Shown here: piece after piece, positions 11,219 through 63,045 of the stretch
How positions within the stretch are numbered: the stretch's first letter is position 1
Layout: each line of letters begins with the position of its first letter
Assembly (NCBI GenBank): GCA_943350765.1
Contig: CALRAJ010000004.1
Coordinates: 19,309-83,308, forward strand
Length of the DNA: 64,000 nucleotides
Source of the DNA: Candidatus Tayloriibacteriota bacterium
Lineage (GTDB): Bacteria > Patescibacteriota > Minisyncoccia > Phycocordibacterales > PALSA-1337
Direction of reading: 5' to 3'
Position numbers and translations under genes: made by a program
Notes under the pieces: generated by a model
Told to the model about the DNA's origin: nothing
What the model saw: the letters and a program-made list of their open reading frames with translations, nothing else
Database searches by the model: none

Positions 11219-11362
11219 TACCCCCAATTACGAAATGCGTTGAAGGCATGTCTTTTAAATGGACTTCGGAAGCGGGTAGCTGAGACTTGAGAGATTTTTC
11301 ACCAGAAAAATACTCGTGCCATTTAAAAGATGTGCCGAGAAAGCATTTCGTAATTGGGGGGG
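11219..11362. repeat. MITE-like ~140-bp palindromic element (copy A)
   Basis: Terminal inverted repeats ccccaattacgaaat...atttcgtaattgggg; the family recurs six more times in the window. Confidence 0.7.
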
Positions 11363-11397
11363 GGAGAGTGGCAAGTTTTTCATTTCAAAAATTTTGA

Positions 11398-13659
11398 CTA
11401 CTCCACCTCCTGCCAGCTCTGTATTTGGTATCCACCAGACGGACCAGAAGTAAAAATTAGGTTGGCTAAACCAGTTTCATACACCACTGACGAGCTATTT
11501 TGAAGTTTTATTTTCCAACCGGTCACTTCTTTTACACTCGCACTACTTTGTAATAAAACCTGACCATGTGGAGCATATATCAGCACTTTACCCGAAATAC
11601 TATTGGCTACACTAATAGCATCAACAGTACCACCGTTTTGAGCACTATTGTTTTGAGAGACAAGCATCACATAAGAATTTGTTCCAGAACCTAGAAATTG
11701 TGTGCTGTTTGAGAGAGTTATCTTGCTACCTGAGGTTCTGCTCGCGGGATTATCTGCAATAATAGCCACCGTCTTACCAGAAATAGATGGACTAATCTGA
11801 ATTGCTCCACTATTGCCCAAGATGATATTCCCCTTTACCCAAACCATACCGGCCAGGGTGAGTGTTGAAGAATTACTTACTTCTAGGTCGCAATTGATTT
11901 TTATCGGTCCTAGAGTTACATTTGCTGAACCCGTTATTTTATACGGACACGGAGTTGTGATCACTCCGCCATTTTCTGCATCTATTTTCCACTGATCTAT
12001 CACGGCATCAGATATAGGCAAGCTACTTGTGGCTTGGTCGGCACTATTTGGGAATGATGTACCCAGCACTTTGGCATTTACAGTGGTTTTAAAATATCCA
12101 TCTTTTTCTGCTACTGCATCAGCGATTTTATTTGCATAAATAGAACCCGTTGAATGTAATTGTGTTACAAAACCATTTGGTCCAGCAGACACCACATCAC
12201 CCAAAACCATATTACCCCCCGAAGCAGTGGCCTGATAGATGCGGAGCGGGCTTACAGCATTTACATTTGTTGTAAGTAGATAAATATATCCAGACGGAGC
12301 GCTGGCGAGATCGTATGGTGCCCCACCAGTAATGGTGATTGTATTTTTAATTTCTGGTAAGACAGTGTTTCCGATATTCCAGACCTGAAACTGTTTTGTA
12401 GTTGCCGAACTTACAGCTGTATAGAGATAACTTCCAGATGCAAAAAATGCCTGAGGTGCAGTGGAAGTATTTGCACTTGTGGATGTTGCAATAGTGGGAG
12501 CTGTGGGGGTAGTGATGTTTACCACCTGAATATTGCCACCTCCCTGAGAGCCTACATACGCGTATATACCATATAATGATACCGAGAGTGGACTTGTCGT
12601 GAGTGCTACCGACCCAACAAGTGTAGGTAACGCTGGATTAGCTAAGCTAAAAATCTCCAACTTACTAGACGCACCACCTTGACTAATAACATACAGATAC
12701 TGATCCTGAATACCAATGTCTATGGGTGCTGCGTTGGTGGCTACTGTTGCCAAAAGCGTCATGCTGGCTGGATTCGAGACATTGAGAACTTTGATTGCAT
12801 TGCCCGAAAATGAAGCGACATAGGCATAAGCACCAGCTACAACAATCCTCCTAGGGTTGCCAGTAACGGCGACCGCACCTCGGTATACTGGCGAAGCCTG
12901 ATTTGTGATGGAGTATGCGATTACATTATTATGACCAGATGAAGTAATAAAAAGATTACTACCAGAAACAACAATGTCTTTTTGCAAAGGATTGATACCA
13001 TTTGGATTAGTAACTGTGGAAACCACCGATGGGGATGCTGGATTTGCAATCGAAACGGTTTGAAGATTATTATTATTTACAACATAGAGGTAGTCACCGC
13101 TACGGGCAAGTCTCCCCGCATCTGGTCCAACATTTACAGTACCCACGAGAGTGGGAGAGATAGATCCAGAGGTAATACTCCCGCTTCCACCGACCCCTCC
13201 ACTTGAATAGATATTTCCTGAAACTGAGGAACTATTAGATAACATAACTCCTCCCTCGCCAACCTGTAGACCATAATTAAATCCTGTTCCTGCACCTGAA
13301 AATAAATCGCTTCCAACTCTTTTTATATACCCCCCGCGATCAGCCGAGGTTGTAATTCTTTTACCCCCTACTATGTCGACAATCGTACTACTCGCAGTAT
13401 AGCCATTTAAGGTCAAGGACTCGCTTGTTCCAACTTTTTTTGACTTTTTAAATCTATAGACAATATCTTCGTGTAGAGCTTCACCGATTGCGTAGCTTTC
13501 TCTAGACTTTACTATGTTTTGTGCATTTTTTAGGTCTCGTGTTACTACTTCAGAAGTGCCGATCACCACGATAAGTCCAATGATTAAGAAAAATACCACC
13601 GAAATAATCATTGCTTGTCCACCTTTCATCGATACATGTTTTAAATTATATTTATTCAT
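11398..13659 (-). CDS. large secreted or membrane-anchored protein with LVIVD-type beta-propeller repeats; last gene of the pilus operon and a candidate pilus-associated adhesin
   Basis: N-terminal hydrophobic helix, then recurring (Y/A)xYVxx...NxxNPxxP units (YLYVVNNNNLQTVSIANPASP, AYAYVASFSGNAIKVLNVSNPAS). Confidence 0.6.
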   Translation of the reverse strand: MNKYNLKHVSMKGGQAMIISVVFFLIIGLIVVIGTSEVVTRDLKNAQNIVKSRESYAIGEALHEDIVYRFKKSKKVGTSESLTLNGYTASSTIVDIVGGKRITTSADRGGYIKRVGSDLFSGAGTGFNYGLQVGEGGVMLSNSSSVSGNIYSSGGVGGSGSITSGSISPTLVGTVNVGPDAGRLARSGDYLYVVNNNNLQTVSIANPASPSVVSTVTNPNGINPLQKDIVVSGSNLFITSSGHNNVIAYSITNQASPVYRGAVAVTGNPRRIVVAGAYAYVASFSGNAIKVLNVSNPASMTLLATVATNAAPIDIGIQDQYLYVISQGGASSKLEIFSLANPALPTLVGSVALTTSPLSVSLYGIYAYVGSQGGGNIQVVNITTPTAPTIATSTSANTSTAPQAFFASGSYLYTAVSSATTKQFQVWNIGNTVLPEIKNTITITGGAPYDLASAPSGYIYLLTTNVNAVSPLRIYQATASGGNMVLGDVVSAGPNGFVTQLHSTGSIYANKIADAVAEKDGYFKTTVNAKVLGTSFPNSADQATSSLPISDAVIDQWKIDAENGGVITTPCPYKITGSANVTLGPIKINCDLEVSNSSTLTLAGMVWVKGNIILGNSGAIQISPSISGKTVAIIADNPASRTSGSKITLSNSTQFLGSGTNSYVMLVSQNNSAQNGGTVDAISVANSISGKVLIYAPHGQVLLQSSASVKEVTGWKIKLQNSSSVVYETGLANLIFTSGPSGGYQIQSWQEVE

Positions 13660-13661
13660 AT

Positions 13662-14177
13662 TTAATAAAAGTTTCGCAATACAGCGGTAGTATAAAATGT
13701 TTCCGTTTTTGTTTTACTACCGACAGAACTTTGTAAAGTAAGGCTGATTTTTACTGCGTTTGAAAGACTGTTTTGTATTTGATTGAAAACCAAATTGGTA
13801 ACTATGGTATTTGAAAGGGTGATCTGTCCACCATCCACTCCCCCAGTCATAACTTTTATTACCCCGCCACTTACATAGAACCTCACAGTGGTTACTGCTC
13901 CATTTGCAAGAGTTGTATTTAGAGTTAGCTGACCCGGACTAGTCACAAAAGTACTTTGTCCAGTATCTATAGACTGTGCCTGGCGGATTTCGTATACCAT
14001 TCTAGAGAGAGCAGAGGTAGCTGAAGCTGTAATATTTTTTGAGAGCTTGACATTATTATATGTCTTTGACATAGTCACCAAACCATTTACCACTAAGGTT
14101 GTTACACTCGTCAATAATGCAATGTACACTAGCATTTCAATGAGAGAAACCCCAGTTTTACGAATATTTGTGTGCAT
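13662..14177 (-). CDS. type IV pilin-like (pseudopilin) protein
   Basis: Prepilin-type N-terminus KTGVSLIEMLVYIALL; start placed at MHTNIRK. Confidence 0.7.
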   Translation of the reverse strand: MHTNIRKTGVSLIEMLVYIALLTSVTTLVVNGLVTMSKTYNNVKLSKNITASATSALSRMVYEIRQAQSIDTGQSTFVTSPGQLTLNTTLANGAVTTVRFYVSGGVIKVMTGGVDGGQITLSNTIVTNLVFNQIQNSLSNAVKISLTLQSSVGSKTKTETFYTTAVLRNFY

Positions 14178-14178
14178 A

Positions 14179-14685
14179 TTAGTTGTCAAACATATTAGTA
14201 ATATAACTTGAAATTTGTTTGCTGGTGGTGGCGGTACTTCCACTTATTTTAGGCCAAACTACTGTTACTGAATATCCTTTGGTATTTGGATCAAGTGTTC
14301 CACCAGAAGACACAATCTTGTCATTACTATCTCGATACACAGCCGAAAACACAACCTTTCTAGTATATATAGTATCTACCGTTTGTGGTGTAGTAGTCGA
14401 TTGCCAAGCTCCACCCGTCCAATTTAAATAATATGTAGTCCCAGCAGTAGTATTACCGATGTGAGATGCCCAGCTTGTATCACGCAGTAGACGGACAACT
14501 TCGAGACCCTCCTCAATCAGAAAACTGGCTTTGACTATCCTAGTATTGGCAAATTGAACTTTTAAATATGAAGAGTAAACACTAAACAGTGATGTGAAGG
14601 TTATGGATATGATAGCGGTTGCTACTACCACCTCCAGTATACTGAAACCAACTTTATACTTTATATTTTGATTCAGGAAAGACAT
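14179..14685 (-). CDS. type IV pilin-like (pseudopilin) protein
   Basis: KVGFSILEVVVATAIISI prepilin cleavage/methylation motif. Confidence 0.7.
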   Translation of the reverse strand: MSFLNQNIKYKVGFSILEVVVATAIISITFTSLFSVYSSYLKVQFANTRIVKASFLIEEGLEVVRLLRDTSWASHIGNTTAGTTYYLNWTGGAWQSTTTPQTVDTIYTRKVVFSAVYRDSNDKIVSSGGTLDPNTKGYSVTVVWPKISGSTATTSKQISSYITNMFDN

Positions 14686-14691
14686 GGTTTT

Positions 14692-15195: not shown

Positions 15196-15198
15196 GTA

Positions 15199-16422: not shown

Positions 16423-16441
16423 GTATATTAAAAATTAAATT

Positions 16442-18208: not shown

Positions 18209-18372
18209 AGTTTTCTTTGATATAAGTATATCAAATAATCCACACAACTCCTCAAAATACACTGTGGACAAGTACAATCTTGGCTAGGTAATAATAGTTA
18301 TTACTATTGTAAAAAAATAAAAAGACCACCCGTGAAGATGGTCAGACTGTATACTTAGACACGGAGTATGGC

Positions 18373-19283: not shown

Positions 19284-19351
19284 CATCTTGTAAGTAACTA
19301 GTTCGCCTCCTCAGGCGGACTCGTTTTTTTAAAAAATACAAATAAAGGGTT

Positions 19352-19413: not shown

Positions 19414-20577
19414 ATGTTTGATTTAAAAGTAATCAACTCAGTACTAGCCCAGATGGAAGAAGAGCGAGGTATTCCAAAAGAAAAAACCCTTGAAGCTATT
19501 AAACTAGCCCTCGCTACTGCATACAAAAAAGAATATGGTAAAAAAGGTCAGATAGTGAGAGCTGATTTTGACCTAAATACTGGTAAAACTGAGTTTTACC
19601 AGGTGAAAATCGTCGTAGATGAGTCAAAAGTCATTATGGAAGACGAGGCAGAAGATAATCTAGAAAATGTTGACATGGAAAATGTCCGTGTTCGATTTAA
19701 TCCCGAACATCACATCCTCCTTGCTGATGCAAAGAAGATTAAAAAAGGTGTCGCACTAGATGATGAAATGATTTTTCCCCTTGAACACAAAGACGACTAT
19801 GGTCGCATTGCTGCCCAGACTGCAAAGCAAATTATTATTCAAAAAATTCGAGAAGCCGAAAAGACCTCTGTGCTTGGCGAATATGGTAAACGAGAGGGTG
19901 AAATAGTAAATGGAACTGTCCAAAGAATGGAACGAGGTAATATCTTCATAGACATGGGGCGTACCACAGGTATTCTACCTTTCGAAGAGCAGATTCCAGG
20001 CGAAAGATATAAGCAGGGTGAGCGTGTTCGTGGATATCTTCAAATGGTAGAAGATGGTCAAAGAGGTGTACTTCTACGCATTTCTCGTGCCCACCCAAAG
20101 TTTTTAGCAAAACTTTTTGAAATTGAAGCTCCAGAAATCGCTTCGGGTACCGTGGCTATCAAGGCTATTGCTCGTGAAGCGGGGTCTCGTTCAAAAATAG
20201 CAGTGGCCTCAAATGATCCTCATATCGATCCCATCGGCTCAATGGTGGGACAGCGAGGAGTACGAGTATCCACAGTGATGAGCGAGCTTCATGGCGAGAA
20301 AATTGATATCATAGAATGGTCAGAGAAGCCAGAGAAGTTTATCGAGGACGCACTTTCACCTGCAAAAGTTTTATCAGTAAAACTTGATATAGCTAGCGGT
20401 AAGGCCAATGTAGAGGTAGCCCCAGATCAACAGTCTCTCGCAATAGGTAAAGGTGGGCAAAATGTCCGTCTAGCTGCAAAGCTCACTGGCTGGAAGATAG
20501 ATATTCAATCTGAGCCGGTAAAGATAGTGACAGTAGAAGCAGTGGCGGAAGTTGCACCTGAAATAAAAGCGGAGTAA
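19414..20577 (+). CDS. nusA: transcription termination/antitermination factor NusA
   Basis: NusA N-domain, S1 domain and two KH domains (GKGGQNVRLAAKLTGWKIDI). Confidence 0.9.
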   Translation: MFDLKVINSVLAQMEEERGIPKEKTLEAIKLALATAYKKEYGKKGQIVRADFDLNTGKTEFYQVKIVVDESKVIMEDEAEDNLENVDMENVRVRFNPEHHILLADAKKIKKGVALDDEMIFPLEHKDDYGRIAAQTAKQIIIQKIREAEKTSVLGEYGKREGEIVNGTVQRMERGNIFIDMGRTTGILPFEEQIPGERYKQGERVRGYLQMVEDGQRGVLLRISRAHPKFLAKLFEIEAPEIASGTVAIKAIAREAGSRSKIAVASNDPHIDPIGSMVGQRGVRVSTVMSELHGEKIDIIEWSEKPEKFIEDALSPAKVLSVKLDIASGKANVEVAPDQQSLAIGKGGQNVRLAAKLTGWKIDIQSEPVKIVTVEAVAEVAPEIKAE

Positions 20578-20697
20578 GAAATTCGTCGAAGGTGTATCTT
20601 TTTCCGAGACTTCGGAAGCGGGTAGTTGAGACGGAGAGATTTCCTACCAAAGAAATACTCGTGCTCGGAAAAAGATATGCCGAGAAAGAATTTCTTA
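20578..20697. repeat. degenerate MITE-like element (copy B, termini eroded)
   Basis: Core cttcggaagcgggtagttgagac...atactcgtgc...atatgccgagaaag matches the other copies. Confidence 0.5.
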
Positions 20698-20727
20698 TTT
20701 CTATCAAAAACATAACCAAAAAAACCC

Positions 20728-27379: not shown

Positions 27380-27609
27380 CAGGCGGGAGACGCTTCGCTA
27401 TCTCACTCGCCCTCCGTTTGTCGAGCCCCTTAGAAACCTCGTCTACAGATGCACATCATCTACCGATGTGCCGAGGTTTCTAACACTCGAGTACTCGTTG
27501 TTTTCCTCCACGGGAAAACGCCTGTTTTCCCGACCCCTTTCCGGTTCGATTCTCCCTACCCACAAAAAATAAGAAAACCTCAGGTAAACTGAGGTTTTCT
27601 TATTTTTTG
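27380..27609 (+). repeat. conserved tRNA-Gly-associated module, copy 1 (structured; ends in an inverted mimic of the tRNA-Gly 3' half plus a terminator hairpin)
   Basis: About 70% identical to 31467-31658; conserved blocks ggcgggagacgcttcgctatc, gaaacctcgtctacagatgcacatcatctaccgatgtgcc, ggttcgattctccc. Confidence 0.6.
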
Positions 27610-31126: not shown

Positions 31127-31466
31127 ATGTAACACTTATTTATGTTTTCACGTGAAACATTTCATGTGAAATCGCCTATTTTTATCAATATACCTATATT
31201 TATAGGCCTATCTTTACAAAAAATACCTCATTTACGGACATTGTCATCGTCGACTATGAGCCATATTCTGTGTCCTTTATGAACACTGTCCACATAGTTA
31301 TCCACAGTTTTCCAAAAATAGCCTTGTTTTTAGGGGATAAGTTGAGTAAGTGGTTTGGGACAAAAGAAGAGGTACCCGATGGAAGTTTTAAAGGACATGG
31401 GGAAGTATAGCATGGATTATATAGAATATGGCGATAGATGCTTTGGCATCAAACTCAAAATGGAGC

Positions 31467-31658
31467 GGGCGGGGGAGACGCTTCGCTATCGAACTTCCTC
31501 GGAAACCTCGTCTACAGATGCACATCACCTACCGATGTGCCAGGGTTTTCCGACGCTCGTCGGGCTCGCTGCCTTCCTCAACAGGGAACTCCCGTTCCCG
31601 ACCCCATCCCCATTCGATTCTCCCTGCCTGACACAAAAAATCTTCGATTTATTTTTTG
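31467..31658 (+). repeat. conserved tRNA-Gly-associated module, copy 2
   Basis: Paralogous to 27380-27609; ends in ttcgattctccctgcc, the inverted image of the adjacent tRNA-Gly(GCC) 3' end. Confidence 0.6.
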
Positions 31659-34215: not shown

Positions 34216-34876
34216 GCCTAGAAAAATAGACAAGAAAAAGCCGCTTCAATGCGACCATGGTTAGATAGGGTGGCAGAGAAGCGGCTTTTAAAATGGGAAG
34301 AATTGTTGATGAGAAATTGGATCGGATTGACCATTGATCTCGATGCTAGAAATAGAACACAGCATCTAAAAATTTAAGGTTGGAGAAGTGTGGACTGCCC
34401 AACAACCAGATCAGGGTTACCAGATCTTTATTCTTTTTCAACTTTCTTCGAGTTATGGAAGAGCGTGCGCCGCTAGTTTTTTCTCGGTAAAAACTTTTGG
34501 CCTGTTATTATTATAGCAAATCAAAAAGACATGTAAAGGACACACCTGTGGATAACTTTTTTGACACTGTCTTTTATAGGAGTACACTTATACTCGGTAT
34601 AGAACAAAGGGATGCTTAAAGGACATCCAACAATTAAAAGGCTTTCTTATGAGTATACTTAAAAAGATAAGTCGCCCAGACTCAAAACCGAGTGTTATTG
34701 AGAAAAAAGTTAATAGGATTCTGAGGCTTTTGAGAAAAGGGAAGGACCACCAAGCATTCAAACTTTGTGGACAATTCTAAATTCAACTTCAACCCTTGGG
34801 GTACTATTATTTATACCGAGCAAATGCCCGGTATTTTTATGGGTAAATTATACACTCAACATTTTTATCCTACTTA

Positions 34877-35018
34877 CCCCAAATTACGAAATACTGTCGC
34901 AGGCGTATCTTTTAAAAGGACTTCGCAAGACGGGTAGTCGAGACTTGAGGAAAATTTCAGCAGAAATTTATCCGTGCCTTTTAAAAGATATGCCGAGAAA
35001 GGCATTTCGTGATTGGGG
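34877..35018. repeat. MITE-like palindromic element (copy C)
   Basis: ccccaaattacgaaatactgtcgcaggcgtatcttttaaaagg...cctttaaaagatatgccgagaaaggcatttcgtgattgggg. Confidence 0.7.
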
Positions 35019-35025
35019 TACTTAC

Positions 35026-35793: not shown

Positions 35794-35873
35794 AACCACA
35801 GTGTAGGGTTTGTGATCAAAAAAGTAAAGTAAATAAAAACTCGACCCTACGGATCGAGATCTGAACAACTCTT

Positions 35874-43911: not shown

Positions 43912-44104
43912 CTACTCATAGTAGGCTTTTACCACACCGAAGTCAATAGGTAAAATGGTACCCTGTGGATAACTAATAAACGGCAACTTTTGTCAAGGTC
44001 GCACCCCGAAACTATCGGTGATTTTTTATAGAATTTTCCGCCTCGACACCCATCATGCCGTCCGTAGTAATTAAGCATTACAAAACTATTTCATGTCTAA
44101 ACAA

Positions 44105-44246
44105 CCCCAAATTACGAGATACTGTCGCAGGCGTATCTTTTAAAGGGGGTTCGCAGGCGGGTAGCCGAGATTTCAGGAAAAAATTAGTAAATTTTTATCC
44201 GTACCCTTTAAAAGATATGCCAAGAAAAGTATTTTGTAATTTGGGG
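44105..44246. repeat. MITE-like palindromic element (copy D)
   Basis: ccccaaattacgagatactgtcgcaggcgtatcttttaaagg...ccctttaaaagatatgccaagaaaagtattttgtaatttgggg. Confidence 0.7.
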
Positions 44247-44266
44247 TAAACAAGCTCCCTATCCCC

Positions 44267-46213: not shown

Positions 46214-46243
46214 GGGGACATCATAACACGAGGTGATGACAAA

Positions 46244-46303
46244 GCCCGAAAAAGGGTCAACGGCTCAGTCGTTTACGACTGAGCCGTTGACCCTTTTTCG
46301 GGC
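46244..46303. terminator. very long (26-bp stem) bidirectional terminator hairpin
   Basis: gcccgaaaaagggtcaacggctcagtcgtttacgactgagccgttgaccctttttcgggc. Confidence 0.6.
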
Positions 46304-46333
46304 TAAAATATCCGTTTTAAACATTTTTAAGAT

Positions 46334-52248: not shown

Positions 52249-52259
52249 TAAATTAAAGT

Positions 52260-53096
52260 ATGTACACAAAAGAACAAAAATTAGACGCGTATCGCAAACT
52301 CCCTGAGGAAATAAAAGCTGTCATTTCTGCTGAAGATGTGACTGATAAGATTACCGCGGTAGGAAACAAGCACAACCTCCTCATCGACAAACAAGGAATG
52401 CTTGTCGACGAAATCGGTCTCGTCATGTTCGGGCTCACTCATCCAGACAAGTTTGTAGACAGTCTGAAAAATCGTCTTGGGATATCACATGACGATGCCG
52501 AGGCTATCGCCACTGATGTAAACAATGAAATCTTGCTCGAAATCCGCGAAGAATTGAAAAAGATTAGTGCAAAAAATGCCGAGACAGAAAAAACCTCCAA
52601 TCTCGCTCACGATAGCCTAGACCCTGTCGAGACGGACGAGCATCACGCCACCCTAAAGAGGGAAGACATCCTGAGAGATATTGAGGATCCCGCTCCAACA
52701 CAGAATCCAACCCTAACTAGAACCACTCTTCCTTTAGCAAGGACCGTCATTGCAAAAGATGCCGAGGCTATTCAGCCTGCCGTAGCCAAAACCTCCCCAC
52801 CTCCATCAAACCTCCCTGTTGCCTATAACGACAACGACCTACCCACCGTTATCCCTCAAATGGATCATTCCTACCCGACACCAGCAAAAAAAGAAGTAGC
52901 TCCCGATAGTCCAGCAACCACTTTAGTCAGAACAGTCCCACTCACACAGACTGTCCTTGCAAAGGAAACCACTCCAAACATCGTTTCCGCCAAACTCAGT
53001 GGGGTAGTCGTTACCACGACCACAAGGATCCCTGAAAAGCCGTCTGCTACAAAAACCCCCTACAAAACAGACCCCTATCGAGAGGGGATAAATTAA
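52260..53096 (+). CDS. hypothetical protein with an internal duplicated TLxRTxPLxxTVxAK motif
   Basis: ORF; repeats TLTRTTLPLARTVIAKD and TLVRTVPLTQTVLAKE. Confidence 0.45.
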   Translation: MYTKEQKLDAYRKLPEEIKAVISAEDVTDKITAVGNKHNLLIDKQGMLVDEIGLVMFGLTHPDKFVDSLKNRLGISHDDAEAIATDVNNEILLEIREELKKISAKNAETEKTSNLAHDSLDPVETDEHHATLKREDILRDIEDPAPTQNPTLTRTTLPLARTVIAKDAEAIQPAVAKTSPPPSNLPVAYNDNDLPTVIPQMDHSYPTPAKKEVAPDSPATTLVRTVPLTQTVLAKETTPNIVSAKLSGVVVTTTTRIPEKPSATKTPYKTDPYREGIN

Positions 53097-53197
53097 CAGA
53101 CAAAATAACCCCGAAGCCGAGACTCTGATTTGACTTTTTTAAACATTCTGCTAATATGTATGTATTCAGACGAAAAGGGATCCAAACGGCTAACTAC

Positions 53198-53731
53198 CTA
53201 AGGAGCCCTTTTCTTTTTTAGCTCTATCTTTGCTCTTATATTTTCTAGATAATCAAAGTATCTAGACCCAATCTCTTTATACAAAGATGATGCGAACTTT
53301 TTATTCGGAAATAAAACCTTCTCAAACCTATTTTCTTCTATCAAAAAATCAACTACAAGTTTGTAATCTCCGTCCCCAGAAACCAAAACAATTTTTGTAA
53401 AATCTTCTTTTTTATACATCTTTTTCATAATATGAAAAATAATATCTGAATCGACATTTCCTTTTTTCTTTCCCATCATCGCTGGATTGTGTTCTCGGAA
53501 TATGAGAACAAAACCAGCACTTTGTATTTCTTCGTATAAATCTTGATTTTCTTCTTGAACATAACCTAGAAAATAGTAGGCTTTACCCACACTGTATTTT
53601 TGCTCAAGATACACACGAAATCTTGTGAGGTCAATTCTCCAAGGGTCGGCTTCTCGCTTAGCAGTACCCATATACAGATTCTGTCCATCTACAAACGCAA
53701 GGTTATTTGTGTGCTTAGTATTCGTGTTCAT
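53198..53731 (-). CDS. NYN-domain predicted RNase (second paralogue-type), embedded in the T4SS-like cluster
   Basis: AFVDGQNLY...IVLVSGDGDY NYN motifs. Confidence 0.65.
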   Translation of the reverse strand: MNTNTKHTNNLAFVDGQNLYMGTAKREADPWRIDLTRFRVYLEQKYSVGKAYYFLGYVQEENQDLYEEIQSAGFVLIFREHNPAMMGKKKGNVDSDIIFHIMKKMYKKEDFTKIVLVSGDGDYKLVVDFLIEENRFEKVLFPNKKFASSLYKEIGSRYFDYLENIRAKIELKKKRAP

Positions 53732-53903
53732 AGTGTGTTTTTGATTTTATCTTAACATAATTAGCATTATAAACACCATTAGATACTTATCCCCAAATAA
53801 CCTCTAAGGGTCATTATTTCACATATAGCAAATATCCTTGATTTTAGTATAATCAAGTAAAGAAAAACTGTATCAAATTATAAGATTTTTATTCACCGCC
53901 ATT

Positions 53904-54332
53904 ATGCGTTTCCAAGTACCACAATTTATCGAAATAGAAGACAAAATAATCGGTCAATTTACCTTTAAGCAGTTTGTCTACATGGGTGGTGGTCTCGGAC
54001 TTTCTTTTGTTGTCTACAATTTTCTAAATATCTACATCGCCCTGATTCTTATTGCTCCGATACTCGCCTTTGCTGGTGCTCTCGCATTTTACAAGCCATA
54101 CAACCCCAGCCAAATACCTTTTTCAGCTCTGGTAGAGTCCGCTGTCAGGTACATAAGCAACGAAAAGCTCTATATCTGGAAGAAAAAAGACCGTCTAGTA
54201 ACACCAAGTGGTACCGGCGAGCTTGTGGACACAGCGATGCTTAGTGTACCAAAGCTTTCGGATAGCAAGCTCAAAGACCTTACATGGAGCCTCGACATAA
54301 ACAACAGTCTCTATTCAGACAAAAGACATTAA
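53904..54332 (+). CDS. PrgI-family (VirB3-like) small membrane protein
   Basis: MRFQVPQFIEIEDKIIGQFTFKQFVYM... followed by two TM helices: the canonical PrgI N-terminus. Confidence 0.65.
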   Translation: MRFQVPQFIEIEDKIIGQFTFKQFVYMGGGLGLSFVVYNFLNIYIALILIAPILAFAGALAFYKPYNPSQIPFSALVESAVRYISNEKLYIWKKKDRLVTPSGTGELVDTAMLSVPKLSDSKLKDLTWSLDINNSLYSDKRH

Positions 54333-54381
54333 ACAACACCTATATTTCTGCTCGAGAGCAGGGCGTGATATACTTAAAACC

Positions 54382-55029
54382 ATGGCGACACTCAGCTCAA
54401 AAACAACTCAAGATTTTGTACCCATAAAAGAGGTAAAGAATGGCATCGTTATTCTCAAAGACGGTGGTATGCGAGGTATACTCATGGCTTCATCTCTAAA
54501 CTTTGCTTTAAAATCTACAGACGAGCAAAACTCCATCATCTACCAATTCCAAAACTTTTTGAACTCTCTCGACTTTTCTGTGCAAATATTTATCCAATCA
54601 AAGCGCCTGGATATTCGCCCATACATAGCGCTCCTAGAAAACAGATACAAGGAACAACCGGGGGACCTCATGAAAATCCAGACCCGCGAGTACATAGAGT
54701 TTATCAAAAACTTTACCGACAACTCCAGTATCATGACAAAAAGCTTTTTTATCGTCGTTCCTTACTCGCCAGCAATTCTACAAACAAAAGATAGTATTGT
54801 GGGCAAGCTTCTCGGCAAAAAATCTTCTACCGAGGTCGATGTAAATAAGCAAAAAATAGAGGATTTTGAAGAACACCGTAGTCAGCTCGAGCAGAGACTG
54901 AGCGTGGTAGAGCAAGGTCTCGTGAGATCTGGGGTACGAGTAGTACAGCTGGGCACCGAGGAGATAGTCGAGCTGTATTATCGCATATTCAATCCTGGAG
55001 ATATGGAAAAGCCGATACAGCTTACATAA
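54382..55029 (+). CDS. VirB4-like protein, N-terminal domain (separate ORF)
   Basis: Sits directly upstream of the ATPase ORF with a 28-bp gap and a frame change; size and position fit the VirB4 N-domain. Confidence 0.5.
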   Translation: MATLSSKTTQDFVPIKEVKNGIVILKDGGMRGILMASSLNFALKSTDEQNSIIYQFQNFLNSLDFSVQIFIQSKRLDIRPYIALLENRYKEQPGDLMKIQTREYIEFIKNFTDNSSIMTKSFFIVVPYSPAILQTKDSIVGKLLGKKSSTEVDVNKQKIEDFEEHRSQLEQRLSVVEQGLVRSGVRVVQLGTEEIVELYYRIFNPGDMEKPIQLT

Positions 55030-55057
55030 TCACCGAGAACTAAGCTATACTTAACAC

Positions 55058-56866
55058 ATGGGAATATTCTCAAACTTATTTGGACCAAAAAAAGAAGTGC
55101 CGATCGCATCTATTTTGCCTCAGCAGATATATAATGCTGGCGTACTTGAGCTAAAGGATATCATTGCTCCATCGGCACTAAAAGTAAGCCCTAAAGAGCT
55201 CAATCTTGGTGAGAAGATCGCCCGCACCTTTTTCGTCATTTCTTATCCTCGATTTCTTTCTGATAGCTGGTTTGCACCTATTATAAACCTCGACAAAGTT
55301 TTCAACATTTCTATTTTTATTCACCCTGTCGATACCGCAAAAGCCCTCCGCACATTCCAGACCAAAGTAGCCGAGGTGCAGAGTCAGATCAATGTTCGAG
55401 AAAAAAAGGGTCTAGTGCGTGACCCAATGCTCGATACTGCCTATCGTGACCTCGAGCAACTCCGCGACAGCCTCCAGCAAGCTCAAGAAAAACTTTTTGA
55501 TGTGGGTGTTTACATTACTATCTATGGCGATAGTGCAGGGGAGCTAGACAAAACCGAGTCTGAGATCAAATCCGTACTCGAGTCAAAGCTTGTATACCTA
55601 AAACCCGCCCTTTTCCAGCAGGAGCAAGGCTACAAGAGCATTTTACCTATTGCTACCGACGAGCTCAATGTACACTCAAAACTCAACTCCTCACCACTCT
55701 CCAGTCTCTTTCCGTTTGTTTCATTTGACCTCACTTCAGACAAAGGTATTCTGTATGGTATCAATCGTCACAACTCTAGCCTTGTGCTTTTTGACCGTTT
55801 TCTACTCGAAAACTACAACTCAGTAACCTTTGCAAAAGCTGGTTCTGGTAAATCATATGCCGTAAAGCTCGAAATTCTCCGCACCCTGATGTTTGAGACT
55901 GAGGTTATCGTTATTGATCCAGAAAAGGAGTACGAATACATGTCCGAGGCAGTCGGCGGACGATACTTCAATATTTCGCTCACATCAGAGCATCATATCA
56001 ACCCTTTTGATCTTCCTATCCCTAGAGAAGATGAGTCTGCGTCAGATGTATTGCGTTCAAATATTGTAAACCTTGTCGGTCTATTTCGTATTATGATGGG
56101 AGGGCTTACTCAGGAAGAAGACGCTATCATCGACCGAGCTATCACGGAAACATATGCACTCAAAGACATCACCGCTGAGTCTGATTTTCGCAATGTCGAG
56201 CCACCACTTCTTTCAGATTTTGAGCTGGTACTGGCTGGTATGGAGGGAGGGGAGTCACTGGTACAAAAGCTTAGTAAATATACAAAAGGAACTTGGTCTG
56301 GCTTTATCAACAGACCGTCAAATGTAGACATCAACAAAAAGTTTGTAGTCTTTTCGCTCCGTGATATGGAAGATGAGCTCAAACCTGTCGCTATGTATAT
56401 TGTTACTCATTATATCTGGAATGCTATTCGCAAAAACCTCAAAAAACGCCTGTTGGTCATCGACGAGGCGTGGTGGATGATGAAATCCGACGACACAGCA
56501 TCATTCCTCCTCGGTCTTGCCAAAAGAGGACGAAAATACTATCTCGGTCTTGCTACCATCACTCAAGATGTTGATGACTTTCTCAAATCACCTTATGGTC
56601 TGCCAATTATTACTAACTCTTCCATTCAAATACTACTAAAACAGTCTCCGTCATCTATAGATATTCTTCAGAAGACCTTCAATCTCACCGACGAGGAAAA
56701 ATACCTTTTGCTCGAGTCGGATATTGGAGAGGGTATATTCTTTGTTGGTCTCAAGCATGTAGCTATTAAGGTAATCGCCTCATATACCGAGGACCAAATC
56801 ATTACGACGAATCCCGAGCAGGTTTTGGCGATCAAGCGAGCAAAAGACGAGCTCGCAGGGCAGTAA
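55058..56866 (+). CDS. VirB4/TraC/PrgJ-family conjugation ATPase (ATPase domain)
   Basis: Walker A FAKAGSGKSYAVK, Walker B LLVIDEAWWMM, C-terminal GLATITQDVDDF. Confidence 0.8.
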   Translation: MGIFSNLFGPKKEVPIASILPQQIYNAGVLELKDIIAPSALKVSPKELNLGEKIARTFFVISYPRFLSDSWFAPIINLDKVFNISIFIHPVDTAKALRTFQTKVAEVQSQINVREKKGLVRDPMLDTAYRDLEQLRDSLQQAQEKLFDVGVYITIYGDSAGELDKTESEIKSVLESKLVYLKPALFQQEQGYKSILPIATDELNVHSKLNSSPLSSLFPFVSFDLTSDKGILYGINRHNSSLVLFDRFLLENYNSVTFAKAGSGKSYAVKLEILRTLMFETEVIVIDPEKEYEYMSEAVGGRYFNISLTSEHHINPFDLPIPREDESASDVLRSNIVNLVGLFRIMMGGLTQEEDAIIDRAITETYALKDITAESDFRNVEPPLLSDFELVLAGMEGGESLVQKLSKYTKGTWSGFINRPSNVDINKKFVVFSLRDMEDELKPVAMYIVTHYIWNAIRKNLKKRLLVIDEAWWMMKSDDTASFLLGLAKRGRKYYLGLATITQDVDDFLKSPYGLPIITNSSIQILLKQSPSSIDILQKTFNLTDEEKYLLLESDIGEGIFFVGLKHVAIKVIASYTEDQIITTNPEQVLAIKRAKDELAGQ

Positions 56867-56952
56867 GTAACATATTTTTTACCTTTTTAGGCGATTAATA
56901 TGTGTCAGAATTGTAAAATCTTTTCTGTTATCTTTTTTAATCTTAATCAACC

Positions 56953-57465
56953 ATGGCAAGTCGAATAAGTAAAACCGAGTGGAAGATATTAGTGGGTTTA
57001 GCTGTTATTGTAGACGGGATACAGATAATCCTCGACTTTTTTGGTATTGGTATTATAGTTAATCGCTTTATTGATGTAGCTGTTGGTATCGCCCTACCGC
57101 TATATCTCCAAACACAAGGGGTAAGTATGGCAAATCCAAAAAGATTACTGGGTATGCTCGGAGCATTTGTCGGTGAAATGATACCCGTAGTAGATAGTCT
57201 TCCCCTGTGGACAGCTGATGTACTTTTTACATGGAGTACTGTCAAAGCTGAGGAGCTGATAGCCAAAGCACCTGGTGGCAAAATGCTGGCAAAAAAGATT
57301 CAAAACTCTCAAAATACTCCGGGACCATCTGACGAAGGCGAGGTTGATGAAGGTTCAAATGATACAGACCTAGACAATATCGATTTAAATGCTGAAGTAG
57401 GAGACTCAAATAATTCTCCCCAACGAGACCGTCCTGTCTTGCAAGACATCCGCCCACGGCTATGA
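56953..57465 (+). CDS. small integral membrane protein with an acidic C-terminal tail
   Basis: Three hydrophobic segments; DEGEVDEGSNDTDLDNIDL tail. Confidence 0.45.
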   Translation: MASRISKTEWKILVGLAVIVDGIQIILDFFGIGIIVNRFIDVAVGIALPLYLQTQGVSMANPKRLLGMLGAFVGEMIPVVDSLPLWTADVLFTWSTVKAEELIAKAPGGKMLAKKIQNSQNTPGPSDEGEVDEGSNDTDLDNIDLNAEVGDSNNSPQRDRPVLQDIRPRL

Positions 57466-57478
57466 TAAAATATAAGTA

Positions 57479-58516
57479 ATGAAATTACGCTCTGTTTATT
57501 TTAATCTTTTCTGTTTAGTAGTCTTTAGTGTTTTTTCTCTGGCTTCTTTTTCACATACTCACGCACAAATCACAAACGATATACCCAGTGCCATAGAGGT
57601 AGACATCGCCCCTCAAAATCCTGGTCCAAATACCGAGACCAGCATCACTATCAAAAACTACTCCACCGATCTCGACCGGGCCACCATCACTTGGTCACTA
57701 AACAACAAACAGCTACAAAAAGCTGTCGGCTCTACTCATTTTGAATTTCGCACAGGTCCTTTGGGAACCCCCTCGGTCGTTACTGTTGTTATTAACACCG
57801 TGAGTGGTAGGACTATTCGCAAAAACATCACCCTCCGGCCATCTGAGGTAGACCTCGTGTGGGAGACTAGTGGCTATACACCACCTTTTTATCGTGGAAA
57901 ATCTATTTATGTCAATCAAGGCTTTGTAACAGTCGTGGCAATCCCAAATATGGTCGGGATAAATGGCAAAAAACTAAACTCTAAAAATCTAGTCTACAAA
58001 TGGAGCGTGGATGGGGAGATAAAGGGCAGTGACTCTGGATATGGCAAGGATAGTTTCGTATTCCAAGGGGGTATTGTGCCACAGCCTACTACTATATCCG
58101 TCGAGGCCTCGTCTCTGACCGATGGTACCCGTGCCTCGGCTAGTATTGAGCTCGATCCAGAGAGACCCGAACTTTTGCTATACCAAGACGATCCTCTCTA
58201 CGGCATATTCTACAACAGAGCTCTACTCGAAACATTTCGCCTTACAGATGATGAGGTCACTTTTCTAGCTTTACCATATTTCTTTTCTGGTAAAACACCG
58301 ACCGTTTCAAGCCTCAGCTATGTATGGAGTATGAACGGTACCGATCTCGGTGACACCGCAAAGAAAAATAGGGTTACCTTGAGAAGGAGCGGCCAGACCG
58401 AGTCGGGGAGTGCTACTATTAGTATCGGTCTAGAAAACTCCCGAGACATCCTACAGGGCGCTAGGCACGATCTCTCCATATCTTTTGAAGCCAAGGGCAA
58501 GGAGGTAAAATTTTAA
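57479..58516 (+). CDS. secreted hypothetical protein (signal peptide)
   Basis: MKLRSVYFNLFCLVVFSVFSLASFSHTHAQ signal peptide; beta-rich. Confidence 0.5.
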   Translation: MKLRSVYFNLFCLVVFSVFSLASFSHTHAQITNDIPSAIEVDIAPQNPGPNTETSITIKNYSTDLDRATITWSLNNKQLQKAVGSTHFEFRTGPLGTPSVVTVVINTVSGRTIRKNITLRPSEVDLVWETSGYTPPFYRGKSIYVNQGFVTVVAIPNMVGINGKKLNSKNLVYKWSVDGEIKGSDSGYGKDSFVFQGGIVPQPTTISVEASSLTDGTRASASIELDPERPELLLYQDDPLYGIFYNRALLETFRLTDDEVTFLALPYFFSGKTPTVSSLSYVWSMNGTDLGDTAKKNRVTLRRSGQTESGSATISIGLENSRDILQGARHDLSISFEAKGKEVKF

Positions 58517-58522
58517 CATTTT

Positions 58523-59770
58523 ATGAAAAATACTTTTACAAAAAGATTATTAGCATCAACACTACTTACAGCCATCGTGATGCTTTTTGTTGGTACACTT
58601 GTAGCTATTCCAGTCAATATATCTGCCCAAGCAGGCACCCAAACTACCGTAAAGGAAACTCCTTGTGTTTCCACCAAAGATGCATACTGTCTTCTCGAGC
58701 CACTCTCAATAGGTGGAAAAGTTGAGACAAAAGTAGCCATAGCCGACTACCTGAAACAACTATTCAAAATAGGTATCGGTCTTGCTGGGCTTTTTGCAGT
58801 ATTTATGATTGTGTTAGGTGGACTTGAGTATATGAGTACTGATGCGGTTACCAAAAAGGAATCTGGCAAAGAAAAGATACAAAATGCTCTCATCGGTCTC
58901 GCTCTCGCCCTCGGCTCATACCTCATACTAAACACCATAAATCCCCAGCTACTTGAGTTTAGTGGGGGACTAGAGCCAGTGGGTACTTTAGCGACAAGAG
59001 AGAGGTATGATGACGGTCTTCAAGCTCGTCTCAATAATATTGAAAATGGCAGACAGCGCGAAAGGGCACTGAGAGCCGATGGTCAAGCAGAAGCAGCAGA
59101 TGACCTCCATCGAGAAGTTCAGGTTGTGGATATTATTGATAGAACGATACTCAACCTACAAAAAAAAGAGGGGGACAAAGCAAACACAAATTATATCCAG
59201 TCTGCAAAAGCTAGTATCGGTCAGCAATACGACAAAGCTATAGTAAAAATACAAACAGCTATTGAAAAAGACAGGTCTGACCGAGCCACAAAAAAAGCAG
59301 GTATAACGACCCAGATAAAAGACCTCGAGTCTTCGGGAGTGCTTACAGCAGACCAAACTCAAAAATTAGCAGACCTTAAAAATGAATTACTGGGATTGGA
59401 AAACTATGTAAACGAAAGCGCTCGATTGACTGAAAAAGTAAGTACTTTGCGAAAGCAAAAAACAAATTCATTGGATGTAATGGAAAAATATTTTATTCAT
59501 GAAGTAGAAACTATTAAATTTACAAGCAGTACCCAAACCATATTTCGTGCATTAAGAACCTACTCAGACACCACCGCAGCCAAAGTTGCAAAAGACCTTG
59601 TGGTTAAAATTTCTAGTGAATCAGAGCAACTAATAAAAACATCTAAGAATGACCAGCCAGAATTAGCTATAAAAATAAAAAATGATAGTGATCAGAGAAT
59701 ACAAAGAATAACAAGTTGGCTCGCACAAGAATTCAAAAAAAACCTTAACGGCACCGAAACAACAAACTAA
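58523..59770 (+). CDS. VirB2/TrbC-like pilin with a long coiled-coil C-terminal extension
   Basis: Signal peptide, then two adjacent TM helices (IGIGLAGLFAVFMIVLGGL; ALIGLALALGSYLILNTI) typical of T4SS pilins, then ~250 aa predicted coiled coil. Confidence 0.5.
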   Translation: MKNTFTKRLLASTLLTAIVMLFVGTLVAIPVNISAQAGTQTTVKETPCVSTKDAYCLLEPLSIGGKVETKVAIADYLKQLFKIGIGLAGLFAVFMIVLGGLEYMSTDAVTKKESGKEKIQNALIGLALALGSYLILNTINPQLLEFSGGLEPVGTLATRERYDDGLQARLNNIENGRQRERALRADGQAEAADDLHREVQVVDIIDRTILNLQKKEGDKANTNYIQSAKASIGQQYDKAIVKIQTAIEKDRSDRATKKAGITTQIKDLESSGVLTADQTQKLADLKNELLGLENYVNESARLTEKVSTLRKQKTNSLDVMEKYFIHEVETIKFTSSTQTIFRALRTYSDTTAAKVAKDLVVKISSESEQLIKTSKNDQPELAIKIKNDSDQRIQRITSWLAQEFKKNLNGTETTN

Positions 59771-59772
59771 CC

Positions 59773-61062
59773 ATGTCCAAAAAAACCCTCATTACTCTCA
59801 TACTCCTCCTTCTTCTCATCACTGCAGGGATTTTTGGCTACTTTTTTTATTCGATCAGGCCCACGCCCCTCGTGATAGACACCAACAAAGACAAAAACAC
59901 CCATTTTCCTTTTGGTAGCGGTAACACTTACCCCACAAATACTGGCAGAGATACTGCCACCAGTACAGGTGCTACAAGTACTTCTACCAGCACACGGAAC
60001 ACCTACACTCGCACACCCGCCCTACCAGTACTCCGCCACCTTTCTACAGTACCTACCGCAGGGGCAGGGGCTTATGACAGCTCTCGGGGCACTCAGATAC
60101 GCTACATCGAGCGAGGCACTGGCTACATCTACCAAGCCAGTAACCTAAACCTTGACCAGATCAAGCTTTCAAATACCCCGATTATAAAAATCTACGAAGC
60201 GCTCTGGACAAGTAAAAATAATGCCTTAATTATTCGCCGTCTCAAGGGGGATACTGACACCATCGACAGCTTCTACAGCACCCTCAACACAACCCCAACC
60301 ATAAAAAACGCCTCGAGTACGACCTCTTTATCTGACTCACTCATTTCCAGCGTATCTTCAGACTACCTAGGTGCAAACATTAGCAGTGCAGTGTTGTCGC
60401 CAAAAAAGGACTCTCTTTTTTACCTAATTCCTGATGGTAGTGGGGGGGTATCTGGTATTATTGCCAAAGTAGATGGAACTAAAAAAGTACTCGTCTTTAG
60501 CTCACCCCTCAAGGGTTGGGTCACACAATGGCCTGCAGATAACACCATCGCGCTCACTAGCAAATCTTCCTCAAAGAGTGCTGGCTTCTTATACTTTGTA
60601 TCTAGTCTGACGGGTTCTTCGACCAAAGTACTCGGAGGAATAAACGGCTTTACAACCCTGACTAGTACGGATACAAATACCGTCCTTTATTCAAAAACCA
60701 ACAACGACAGCTTCACGCTCAACTCATTTAATGTAAAAAATGGCAACAAAGAACAAATAAGCCTCACCACCTTGCCTGAAAAGTGTGTTTGGAGCGCAAA
60801 AGAAAAGAATAGTGCTTATTGTGCGGTGCCAAAAAGTATTCCAAGTGGTAGCTACCCAGAAAGCTGGTATCAAGGGAAAGTATTTTTCAACGACGAAATC
60901 TGGAAAATCGACACTTTTATAGGAACACTCGAGCATATTGCTGACCTTAATAGTCTGTCTGGGCAAGAGATTGACGCGACAAACCTAAGTCTAAATGGTA
61001 AAGAAGACCTGCTACTTTTTACAAACAAACAAGACCTCACCTTATGGAGCTTGGATATATAA
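59773..61062 (+). CDS. membrane-anchored Ser/Thr-rich beta-rich protein
   Basis: N-terminal TM, low-complexity TST linker, repeated hydrophobic beta-like segments. Confidence 0.45.
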   Translation: MSKKTLITLILLLLLITAGIFGYFFYSIRPTPLVIDTNKDKNTHFPFGSGNTYPTNTGRDTATSTGATSTSTSTRNTYTRTPALPVLRHLSTVPTAGAGAYDSSRGTQIRYIERGTGYIYQASNLNLDQIKLSNTPIIKIYEALWTSKNNALIIRRLKGDTDTIDSFYSTLNTTPTIKNASSTTSLSDSLISSVSSDYLGANISSAVLSPKKDSLFYLIPDGSGGVSGIIAKVDGTKKVLVFSSPLKGWVTQWPADNTIALTSKSSSKSAGFLYFVSSLTGSSTKVLGGINGFTTLTSTDTNTVLYSKTNNDSFTLNSFNVKNGNKEQISLTTLPEKCVWSAKEKNSAYCAVPKSIPSGSYPESWYQGKVFFNDEIWKIDTFIGTLEHIADLNSLSGQEIDATNLSLNGKEDLLLFTNKQDLTLWSLDI

Positions 61063-61070
61063 GATAGTGA

Positions 61071-61393
61071 CCCCGAATTACGAAATACCGTCGCAGGCGT
61101 ATCTTTTCGAGGGGGCTCGCAGGTCGACGAGCGAAGGCGAGGAAGATACTGCATCTACCAAGATACATGTGCATGGGTAGCCCTCTGCCTTCGCTAAAGC
61201 TACGGCATGGCGAGGGAGATTTCAGAGATTTTTCAGTAGAAAAATACTCGTACCCCATCTACAGGTGGTCTATTGGTTAGGAATAGACATCTGTGGACGA
61301 TCTATCCCTAACCGATAGACCTCGAAAAGATACGCCAAGAAAGGGTCGATCGTTTGTGATCGACACCTGTAGACGGTATTTTGTAATTCTGGG
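61071..61393. repeat. expanded composite MITE-like element (copy E, ~320 bp with nested palindromes)
   Basis: Family termini ccccgaattacgaaatac...tattttgtaattctggg enclose extra inverted repeats (catctacaggtg/cacctgtagacg; ggttagg/cctaacc). Confidence 0.65.
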
Positions 61394-61402
61394 TAGTGAA
61401 AA

Positions 61403-62140: not shown

Positions 62141-62199
62141 ATATATGTATACTATCCTACTTGACGATGATTATCAATAAATCCTTTTTAATTTATTTA

Positions 62200-62338
62200 C
62201 CTGAATTACGAAATGCGTTGAAGGCGTATCTTTTAAATGGACTTCGCAAGGCGGGTAGCCGAGACTTGAGAGATTTTCTAGTAAGAAAATACTCGTGCCA
62301 TTTAAAAGATATGCCGAGAAAGTATTTCGTAATTTGGG
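62200..62338. repeat. MITE-like palindromic element (copy F)
   Basis: cctgaattacgaaatgcgttgaaggcgtatcttttaaatgg...ccatttaaaagatatgccgagaaagtatttcgtaatttggg. Confidence 0.7.
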
Positions 62339-62345
62339 TTGCTAC

Positions 62346-62687
62346 CTACAAAATAAGCCCAGACTGCTTGAGTAGGGCAGTGATTTCTTTTTTTATTTGA
62401 TCAAACGATAGCCCAAGTGAGCCAGTTTTAAAAAGAAATACAGCTGAGACACCCTTTTTTATCTCAGGTATAAAACCTTCTACCGAGGAGATTGCTCTTC
62501 TACGAAGAAGATTCCTATCTACTGAAAGTATTGCCACCTTTTTAGGTACAGTTACAGAAAAAGTACTAGGTGTGATATCGTCCTTTTTTATTCCTCTTAG
62601 AACTATATGTGGTGAATGAAAAGAAAGACCTTTTTTCAGGACCTCTGCAAAAACAGCCTTATGTACCCTCAATTTACGAGGAAGCAT
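62346..62687 (-). CDS. rnpA: ribonuclease P protein component
   Basis: MLPRKLRVHKAVFAEVLKKG...; basic; immediately downstream of rpmH. Confidence 0.8.
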   Translation of the reverse strand: MLPRKLRVHKAVFAEVLKKGLSFHSPHIVLRGIKKDDITPSTFSVTVPKKVAILSVDRNLLRRRAISSVEGFIPEIKKGVSAVFLFKTGSLGLSFDQIKKEITALLKQSGLIL

Positions 62688-62701
62688 GTATTTTGGGTTG
62701 A

Positions 62702-62836
62702 CTAAACAACGAGACGAGTGCGTCCTTTGGCTCGACGACGCTTTATCACATTTCTACCAGCAGTAGTACGACGACGCTTTATAAAGCCGTGTGATCTTGC
62801 TCTCTTTCGCTTTTTTGGTTTGTATGTAAACGACAT
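62702..62836 (-). CDS. rpmH: 50S ribosomal protein L34 (44 aa; absent from the ORF track because it is under 60 aa)
   Basis: Manual translation [44 protein letters not shown]. Confidence 0.85.
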
Positions 62837-62938
62837 AAAAAACATCATACTCTGTATTAGCTAAAAAATCAAGTCGCTTCTCTACCTACATCTAAAATCA
62901 GCCCTAAAATCCCATAATGGTGGTTATTTCTTAATTTA

Positions 62939-62995
62939 CCCCAAATTACGAGATACTGTCGTAGGCGTATCTTTTAAAAGGACTTTCACATCGGT
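62939..62995. repeat. half copy of the MITE-like element inside the rpmH-dnaA origin region (copy G)
   Basis: ccccaaattacgagatactgtcgtaggcgtatcttttaaaaggactt, then the similarity ends. Confidence 0.55.
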
Positions 62996-63045
62996 AGGGT
63001 GGTGTGCCCACTGCATACTTCATTTTGTTATTTAGGTTAAATTTC

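Follow-up and report, generated by a model that had tools for sequence, protein, structure and literature searches.

What is the palindromic sequence of about 140 bp that recurs between the genes in one short stretch of a metagenome-assembled genome of Parcubacteria (candidate phyla radiation, CPR), and what selects for its folding? The window analysed comprised 64,000 nucleotides (contig CALRAJ010000004.1, positions 19,309 to 83,308 of the forward strand, assembly GCA_943350765.1). An earlier inspection of the letters, here called the sequence-only reading, had listed seven copies and offered as explanations transcribed structured RNAs or terminators, or else non-autonomous transposable elements. 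The family was assigned here, at a probability of about 70%, to non-autonomous DNA transposable elements, that is, miniature inverted-repeat transposable elements (MITEs) of ~140 bp native to a Parcubacteria clade. The transposable-element explanation holds because target-site duplications exist and because syntenic relatives have empty sites. Conservation is far stricter in the shape of the hairpin than in its sequence.

All seven copies lay where the earlier list had placed them, give or take a few bases, as determined by motif scan, nhmmer and a covariance model. The window contained five full copies (~140 bp; range 129-142 bp), one composite of 323 bp and one 5' half copy. All were on the + strand and, as had been claimed, all were intergenic although approximately 85% of the window is coding. 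The family occupied 1.7% of the window, or ~11% when only the non-coding DNA is counted. The copies, with their target-site duplications where found, and the nearby DnaA boxes were located as follows.

11221..11360, + strand: full copy, subfamily A (covariance model 156.6 bits; inner pairs 100% intact).
20573..20701, + strand: full-length copy with diverged termini in the nusA-ppa spacer (covariance model 136.1 bits; 98% paired).
34871..35025, + strand: full copy 34877-35018 plus duplication TACTTA(C) at 34871-34877 and 35019-35025.
44098..44253, + strand: full copy 44105-44246 plus perfect 7-bp duplication TAAACAA at 44098-44104 and 44247-44253.
61065..61399, + strand: composite copy 61071-61393 plus 6-bp duplication TAGTGA at 61065-61070 and 61394-61399 (28.4 bits).
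62200..62338, + strand: full copy in the rnpA-yidC spacer (covariance model 161.6 bits).
62939..62990, + strand: 5' half copy in the rpmH-dnaA spacer, from profile and covariance-model searches.
63046..63095, + strand: three DnaA-box-like 9-mers (TTATCCCCA, TTATACACA, TTTTCCACA) upstream of dnaA, given as context only.

The terminal motif CCCCAAATTACGAAAT (up to 3 mismatches) matched the window 12 times where 0.81 matches were expected, and none of 100 shuffles reached 12. A degenerate left-end pattern (27-28 nt) gave six matches, each on the + strand, against an expectation of 0. The nhmmer profile and the covariance model retrieved precisely the seven window copies and no additional ones, and the 10 kb of genome to the left of the window contained no further copy. 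A mini copy of 46 bp, internally deleted (ACCCCAAATTACGAAAT-GTGCCGATAAAG-TATTTCCTAATTTGGGG), was found outside the window at L001 20724-20769, ~7.5 kb beyond dnaA; here and below, loci outside the window carry L numbers. It retained the outer stem and the 3' loop only, and kept the + orientation despite lying on the other replication arm.

Target-site duplications had been proposed as a check, and they were found. Perfect direct repeats of 6-7 bp abutted the element ends in uniform register in 5 of 27 copies: TACTTA(C) (copy 34877), TAAACAA (44105), TAGTGA (flanking the whole 323-bp composite), TATTATA (L015) and TATTTTA (L016). The L009 copy carried a sixth, imperfect duplication (5/6 bases). 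For the null rate, left and right flanks of different copies were paired, and a perfect match was obtained in 0.7% (binomial P 1.3e-6). The duplicated targets were AT-rich and began with TA. The ends themselves were terminal inverted repeats (CCCCAAATTACGAAAT ... ATTTCGTAATTTGGGG), with arms of 42-44 nt that were 76-86% complementary. No copy contained a transposase open reading frame (ORF); the sole ORFs were spurious and arose from the symmetry of the element, and the DMPRK and GSRDLR peptides, already suspected to be artefacts, were both translated repeat. The half copy, the composite copy and the 46-bp mini copy are derivatives typical of transposons.

Flanking genes were non-homologous between genomes, so the copies occupied unrelated intergenic sites. 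Where gene order was shared, copies were present or absent in both directions. L020, L021 and L022 lacked copies at all three nearby sites despite a shared order of type IV secretion system (T4SS)-yidC-rnpA-rpmH-dnaA-dnaN and a YidC 80% identical. The rnpA-yidC spacer measured 205 bp in the window, including copy 62200-62338, versus 44 bp, element-free, in L021 and L022. Conversely, L015, which is syntenic with window 615-6811, carried two copies where the window spacers were 51 and 78 bp, and TAATATA of the window aligned with the duplicated TATTATA of one L015 copy, which identifies an empty site. This presence and absence at homologous sites fits membership of the MITEs. The window and L006/L010 had seemed syntenic by the lengths of their flanking ORFs (648/648 and 753/754 aa), but the proteins are unrelated and the agreement in length was discarded as coincidence.

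The fold was determined from 23 distinct copies. An outer stem of ~17 bp, built by the terminal inverted repeats, is followed by a conserved purine-rich 6x6 internal loop (GUYGAA / GAGAAA) and by an inner stem of ~18 bp with a nearly invariant core (TATCTTTT/AAAAGATA). A three-way junction comprises a stretch conserved on the 5' side only (CTTCGCAAGG, a small hairpin CGG-GTAG-CCG, then AGAC) plus an apical hairpin of 10 bp. The small junction hairpin covaries (CGG/CCG, CGG/CUG, CGCG/CGCG, AGCU/AGCU). Of the features noted in the sequence-only reading, the inner inverted pair, the asymmetric conserved core and the long hairpin proved genuine. The fold energies of full copies ranged from -61 to -71 kcal/mol (z about -8 to -9).

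The consensus fold contained 47 pairs, and 93.1% of cells were standard pairs, versus 74% under column shuffles and 39-52% with the partner slid by 1-3 columns. Compensatory double changes were found in 40 of the 47 pairs; 0 of 500 shuffles reached any of five measures. Covariation had been put forward earlier as the mark of an RNA, and plain sequence identity as that of a MITE. Covariation was very strong, and the choice proved a false one, both signals being found together. Loop and junction bases were more conserved than stems: the majority-base frequency was 0.87 in unpaired columns and 0.73 in paired columns. The structure persisted to 45-55% sequence identity (L013b, L014b).

One strand carried the better fold. 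The aligned (sense) strand folded better in 23/23 copies, with a mean advantage of 7.9 kcal/mol (Wilcoxon 2.7e-5), and covariance model scores were 93-166 bits for sense and 22-60 bits for antisense. G.U cells numbered 56 and A.C cells 21, with a G.U excess in 18 copies and an A.C excess in 1; one pair showed a conserved G.U. DNA energy parameters yielded an identical strand asymmetry, so RNA and single-stranded DNA are inseparable by sequence alone.

Under the MITE assignment, insertion would most likely proceed through a staggered 6-7-bp cut, that is, by a DDE-type transposase supplied in trans from an insertion sequence elsewhere. In lineages still transposing, selection appears to favour one particular strand folded precisely in single-stranded form, with defined bases in the loops and the junction. 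We infer selection for one folded strand because compensatory changes keep the pairing, conservation is higher in loops than in stems and G.U cells exceed A.C cells. The folded strand could be DNA in transposition or RNA read through from adjacent genes. Inserted copies would put a long hairpin into any read-through mRNA, and effects on termination, processing or stability would likely be by-products.

Several observations weigh against this assignment. No recognisable duplication was present in 22 of 27 copies, and 17 of these were still 94% paired, which is unexpected of a purely selfish MITE decaying neutrally; it points to selection acting once a copy has inserted, to gene conversion among copies or to ends that were set wrongly. 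If the transposase binds the terminal repeats as double strands, neither the greater conservation of loops than of stems nor the bias of the fold towards one strand is explained. The window plus ~270 kb of related loci (~330 kb) yielded neither an autonomous insertion sequence with matching ends nor a transposase gene. The large ORFs of the window were housekeeping genes (ComEC, RecJ, PGK, PilB/C-like, RNase Y, Xer-like integrase, ComM) with no transposase among them, and an all-against-all ORF comparison across loci gave no multi-copy transposase-like protein. All eight copies in this genome region (the seven plus the mini copy) shared the + orientation, whereas neighbouring genes were mixed (30 +, 34 -). 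Local GC skew was negative in the element orientation for 22 of 28 copies, copies that share a contig not being independent. In four other loci (L010, L014, L015 and L018), orientation was mixed within a few kb. DDE insertion sequences are documented to show orientation biases with respect to replication that differ by family (PMC3971601), so the shared orientation alone is no argument for a single-strand mechanism.

An unlikely possibility is a mobile unit whose active form is the folded single strand (RNA or one DNA strand), or a selfish element recruited genome-wide by CPR hosts as an RNA-level signal. A partner protein may then recognise the internal loop and the three-way junction, with integration still by a 6-7-bp staggered cut. 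To our knowledge, recognition of a folded single strand combined with such integration has not been described for bacterial transposons. If true, this would represent a new mechanism or a host-recruited role.

Very strong covariation, a three-way junction whose bases, like those of the loops, are conserved beyond the stems, the G.U excess with its one conserved G.U pair, and structure kept in the copies at 45-55% identity would also suit a gene family for a free-standing structured small RNA. In this new class of non-coding RNA, the RNA would be the functional product and spread would be secondary. The element nevertheless lacked its own transcription signals and a consistent context. Similarity ended precisely at the hairpin ends, and the flanks were unconserved. 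No conserved promoter was found across copies, the best site scoring 9/12 (TTGAGA-16-AATACT), no better than shuffles; a promoter inside the full hairpin could not transcribe the whole hairpin. No U-tract or terminator 3' of the hairpin was conserved across copies. Orientation with respect to neighbouring genes was random (tandem contexts, 11 antisense and 5 sense; 7 convergent; 5 divergent). An Rfam search, suggested in the sequence-only reading, yielded no such family: at the gathering score (release 15) only tRNAs and, in a related locus, a tmRNA were matched in or near copies, and at E up to 10 merely chance hairpin matches were added. The target-site duplications and the absence of copies from syntenic relatives likewise count against an RNA gene, which is a decidedly improbable explanation.

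Slimmer still are the chances of host cis-regulatory hairpins (bidirectional terminators, RNase III sites or mRNA stabilisers) selected at each site, with mobility only as their historical origin. All 28 copies lay between genes in ~85% coding DNA, mostly 0-40 bp from a gene end. The composite fills a spacer in which relatives have two terminator-like hairpins, the copies without duplications retain 94% of pairs, and ERIC and Correia elements are known to play comparable parts (PMC3184786). The orthologous sites count against site-by-site selection, none of them sharing a copy between species (L020-L022 lack three; the window lacks the L015 copies). Both orientations occur, though just one yields the stronger RNA hairpin, and adjacent gene 5' ends (26) were about as frequent as 3' ends (30). 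The U-tract of a terminator was absent 3' of the hairpin. The terminal stems were AT-rich and ended in GGGG without a T-run, unlike an intrinsic terminator, and a terminator scan passed over the family hairpin, flagging just two of the hairpin modules inserted in the composite. Neither a free-standing RNA gene nor a host regulatory element arising site by site is likely as the primary explanation, because an Rfam family, a conserved promoter and a U-tract are absent, orientation is random and orthologous sites are not shared.

The least probable alternative is the end or relic of a single-strand DNA transposon moved by an HUH/Y1 enzyme, like REP/BIME with RAYT or the palindrome-associated elements of IS200/IS605: the better fold of one strand under DNA parameters, conserved loops with covarying stems, the uniform orientation in this genome region and the negative local GC skew speak for it, but membership fails because HUH/Y1 transposons need no terminal repeats and leave no duplication, whereas the 6-7-bp duplications here abut terminal repeats. 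By our reading, the better-folding strand is the leading-strand template in the window, the opposite of the strand preference of IS608. The mini copy past the origin stays +, orientation is mixed in the four loci named above, and a replication-related bias is known from DDE families too. No Y1 or RAYT gene was seen among the window ORFs or near copies.

Other identities were tried and rejected. An integron attC site was defined by RYYYAAC/GTTRRRY boxes and one site per cassette in an array; most copies had GTCGAAG or GTCGCAG, not GTTRRRY, and copies were spaced 0.7-23 kb apart among housekeeping genes. A likeness of the internal loop, with GUC in one strand and AGAA in its partner, to loop A of the hairpin ribozyme was discarded, the internal loop being 6x6 and not 4x4, loop B being absent and the Rfam ribozyme models being unmatched. 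The sequence fitted neither a kink-turn, nor an IHF site, nor an internal sigma-70 promoter.

The individual MITE copies differed in their settings. Copy 11221-11360 was 88% identical to copy 62200-62338 and had no clear target-site duplication; its neighbours were tpiA (10238-10990, -) on one side and an LVIVD beta-propeller gene (11398-13659, -) on the other. The copy at 20578-20697 had been described as eroded; it is in fact full-length (20573-20701) and 98% paired but has other termini, and its 5' terminal stem contains the nusA stop codon TAA (20575-20577). Copy 34877-35018 with its duplication was directly followed by the stop codon of a convergent gene (35026-35877). The neighbours of copy 44105-44246 were an M23 peptidase gene and uvrD, both -.

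The composite 61071-61393 occupied the entire spacer of two convergent genes. It comprised the family hairpin and three additional hairpin inserts, placed in the 5'-side bulge (~61127-61226), past the apical hairpin (~61257-61321) and in the 3' internal loop (~61345-61377), and folded at -152 kcal/mol (z -10). The half copy 62939-62990 consisted of the left terminal repeat, the 5' internal loop, the 5' strand of the inner stem and a variant start of the bulge (CTTTCACATCGGTAG). It had been described as lying in the replication origin, but sits in the rpmH-dnaA spacer, ~55 bp from three DnaA boxes (63046-63095). The GC skew does switch sign at dnaA, but a larger cluster of six boxes was found in the dnaA-dnaN spacer, beyond the window.

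Further repeats were observed near or inside the family. Two paralogous non-coding stretches of ~200 nt (window 27380-27590 and 31450-31640; 79% identical) lay beside two tRNA-Gly genes. Each ended in an inverted partial copy of a tRNA T-arm (TTCGATTCTCCC) and contained a hairpin CCTCG-TCTACAGATGCACATCATCTACCGATGTGCC-GAGG; neither had an Rfam match. The 18-mer CACATCGGTAGATGATGT from these stretches recurred in the expanded bulge of the family copy at L012:1581-1761, and CACATCGGTAG recurred in half copy 62939-62990. A hairpin module, CCGTCTACAGGTG-TCGATCACAAACGATCGA-C, sat inside the composite, within its 3' internal loop (window 61345-61377), and also occurred alone in a different insert of ~135 nt in the L020 rnpA-yidC spacer (~9890-9925). 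These occurrences suggest a second family of small mobile hairpins able to nest within the MITE. Near-perfect long hairpins with the core AACGGCTCA...TGAGCCGTT were found at convergent gene ends (window 46243-46304 and 11108-11194; L001 20670-20705; L021 3060-3120) and are probably bidirectional terminators or another repeat family.

Two observations concern the rest of the window. A T4SS-like cluster (PrgI, TraC-like, TraG-type P-loop ATPase, T4SS pilin-like; ~50000-61062) adjoined yidC-rnpA-rpmH-dnaA and occupied the same place beside yidC in relatives L020 and L021. At window 6776-6873, a 49-nt unit was duplicated in tandem (80% identical) at the recJ 5' end and the start of the adjacent ORF; fainter resemblances (61-63%) at 22103 and 25125 could have arisen by chance.

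The window sequence also matched metagenome-assembled genome GCA_943354485.1 and identical ENA and Logan contigs. The nearest YidC homologues were labelled Patescibacteria, Parcubacteria or Paceibacterota. Outside this genome, the MITE family turned up in diverged form (45-91% identity) in several metagenomes and in no fewer than three further Parcubacteria genomes. At least 23 distinct full copies were counted across genomes. In the genome scans, the left-end pattern gave no match and the central pattern gave nine loci. Carriers identified by pattern scans were Ca. Taylorbacteria AH-24oct19-230, Parcubacteria SLM_LV1_02b-A19 and Parcubacteria ant_bin.105, with further metagenome contigs from JGI, ENA and Hainich groundwater. 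L007, a match from the metagenome scan, was a chance match within an ORF and was removed. Contig L003 terminated inside a copy, as expected of a dispersed repeat. The family was not found in viral contigs (two patterns) or in plasmids and phages (blastn). In Parcubacteria SLM_LV1_02b-A19 (L011), copy 3526-3664 stopped 3 nt before the 5' end of a tmRNA gene (3668-4065) in the same orientation. Literature searches gave no report of MITEs in Parcubacteria, Patescibacteria or CPR.

CPR/Patescibacteria genomes are very small and gene-dense, and one MITE family takes a ninth or so of the non-coding DNA of this origin-proximal window. It supplies the nusA stop codon, sits within the rnpA-yidC operon and adjoins DnaA boxes upstream of dnaA. 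Practical effects include assembly breaks, as in L003, and spurious ORFs, and the family offers a ready marker of variation among strains. Because it combines the footprints of a transposon with strong covariation, conserved loops and an asymmetry between strands, it is well suited to studying what selects for folding of the whole element, a question also asked of bcr1 and ERIC.

Among known systems, REP/BIME with RAYT and IS200/IS605 resemble the family in that a hairpin is the recognised feature and in their strand asymmetry. They differ in having hairpins of 20-40 nt or two sub-terminal hairpins, a Y1 transposase, and neither terminal repeats nor duplication, none of which describes the present family. 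Rickettsia palindromic elements (RPEs) are palindromic repeats of ~105-146 bp spread in a reduced genome (PMC3184786, Table 1). The Parcubacteria family is alike in size and in its dispersal through a reduced genome. RPEs are often inserted in frame within genes, whereas the Parcubacteria copies are without exception intergenic and contribute to a gene only through the nusA stop codon.

ERIC/IRU and Correia (NEMIS/CREE) elements of Proteobacteria are MITEs of 104-157 bp that form full-length long hairpins, are TA-flanked and intergenic, often adjoin gene ends, and are co-transcribed, affecting mRNA processing (PMC3184786). They duplicate TA only, whereas the Parcubacteria family duplicates 6-7 bp starting with TA and, unlike them, has no IHF site or validated promoter. 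We know of no asymmetric conserved junction, nor of loops conserved beyond stems, in ERIC or Correia elements.

The closest described analogue is bcr1, a group A interspersed repeat of the Bacillus cereus group. It is ~150-155 bp long, non-coding and intergenic, with 5-bp direct repeats, a distribution unconserved between related genomes, compensatory changes that keep its secondary structure, and no internal transposase (PMC3184786). Size, intergenic position, patchy distribution, direct repeats and compensatory changes are common to both; the comparison is one of properties, not of sequences. The two differ in the length of the direct repeats (5 bp in bcr1, 6-7 bp here), in host (Firmicutes versus CPR) and in fold, which is a cruciform-like stem-loop pair in bcr1 and a single long fold-back with a three-way junction in the Parcubacteria family. 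Transcription is known for bcr1. We conclude that the Parcubacteria family is a new, structure-constrained family of fold-back MITEs, nearest in kind to bcr1, ERIC and Correia elements.

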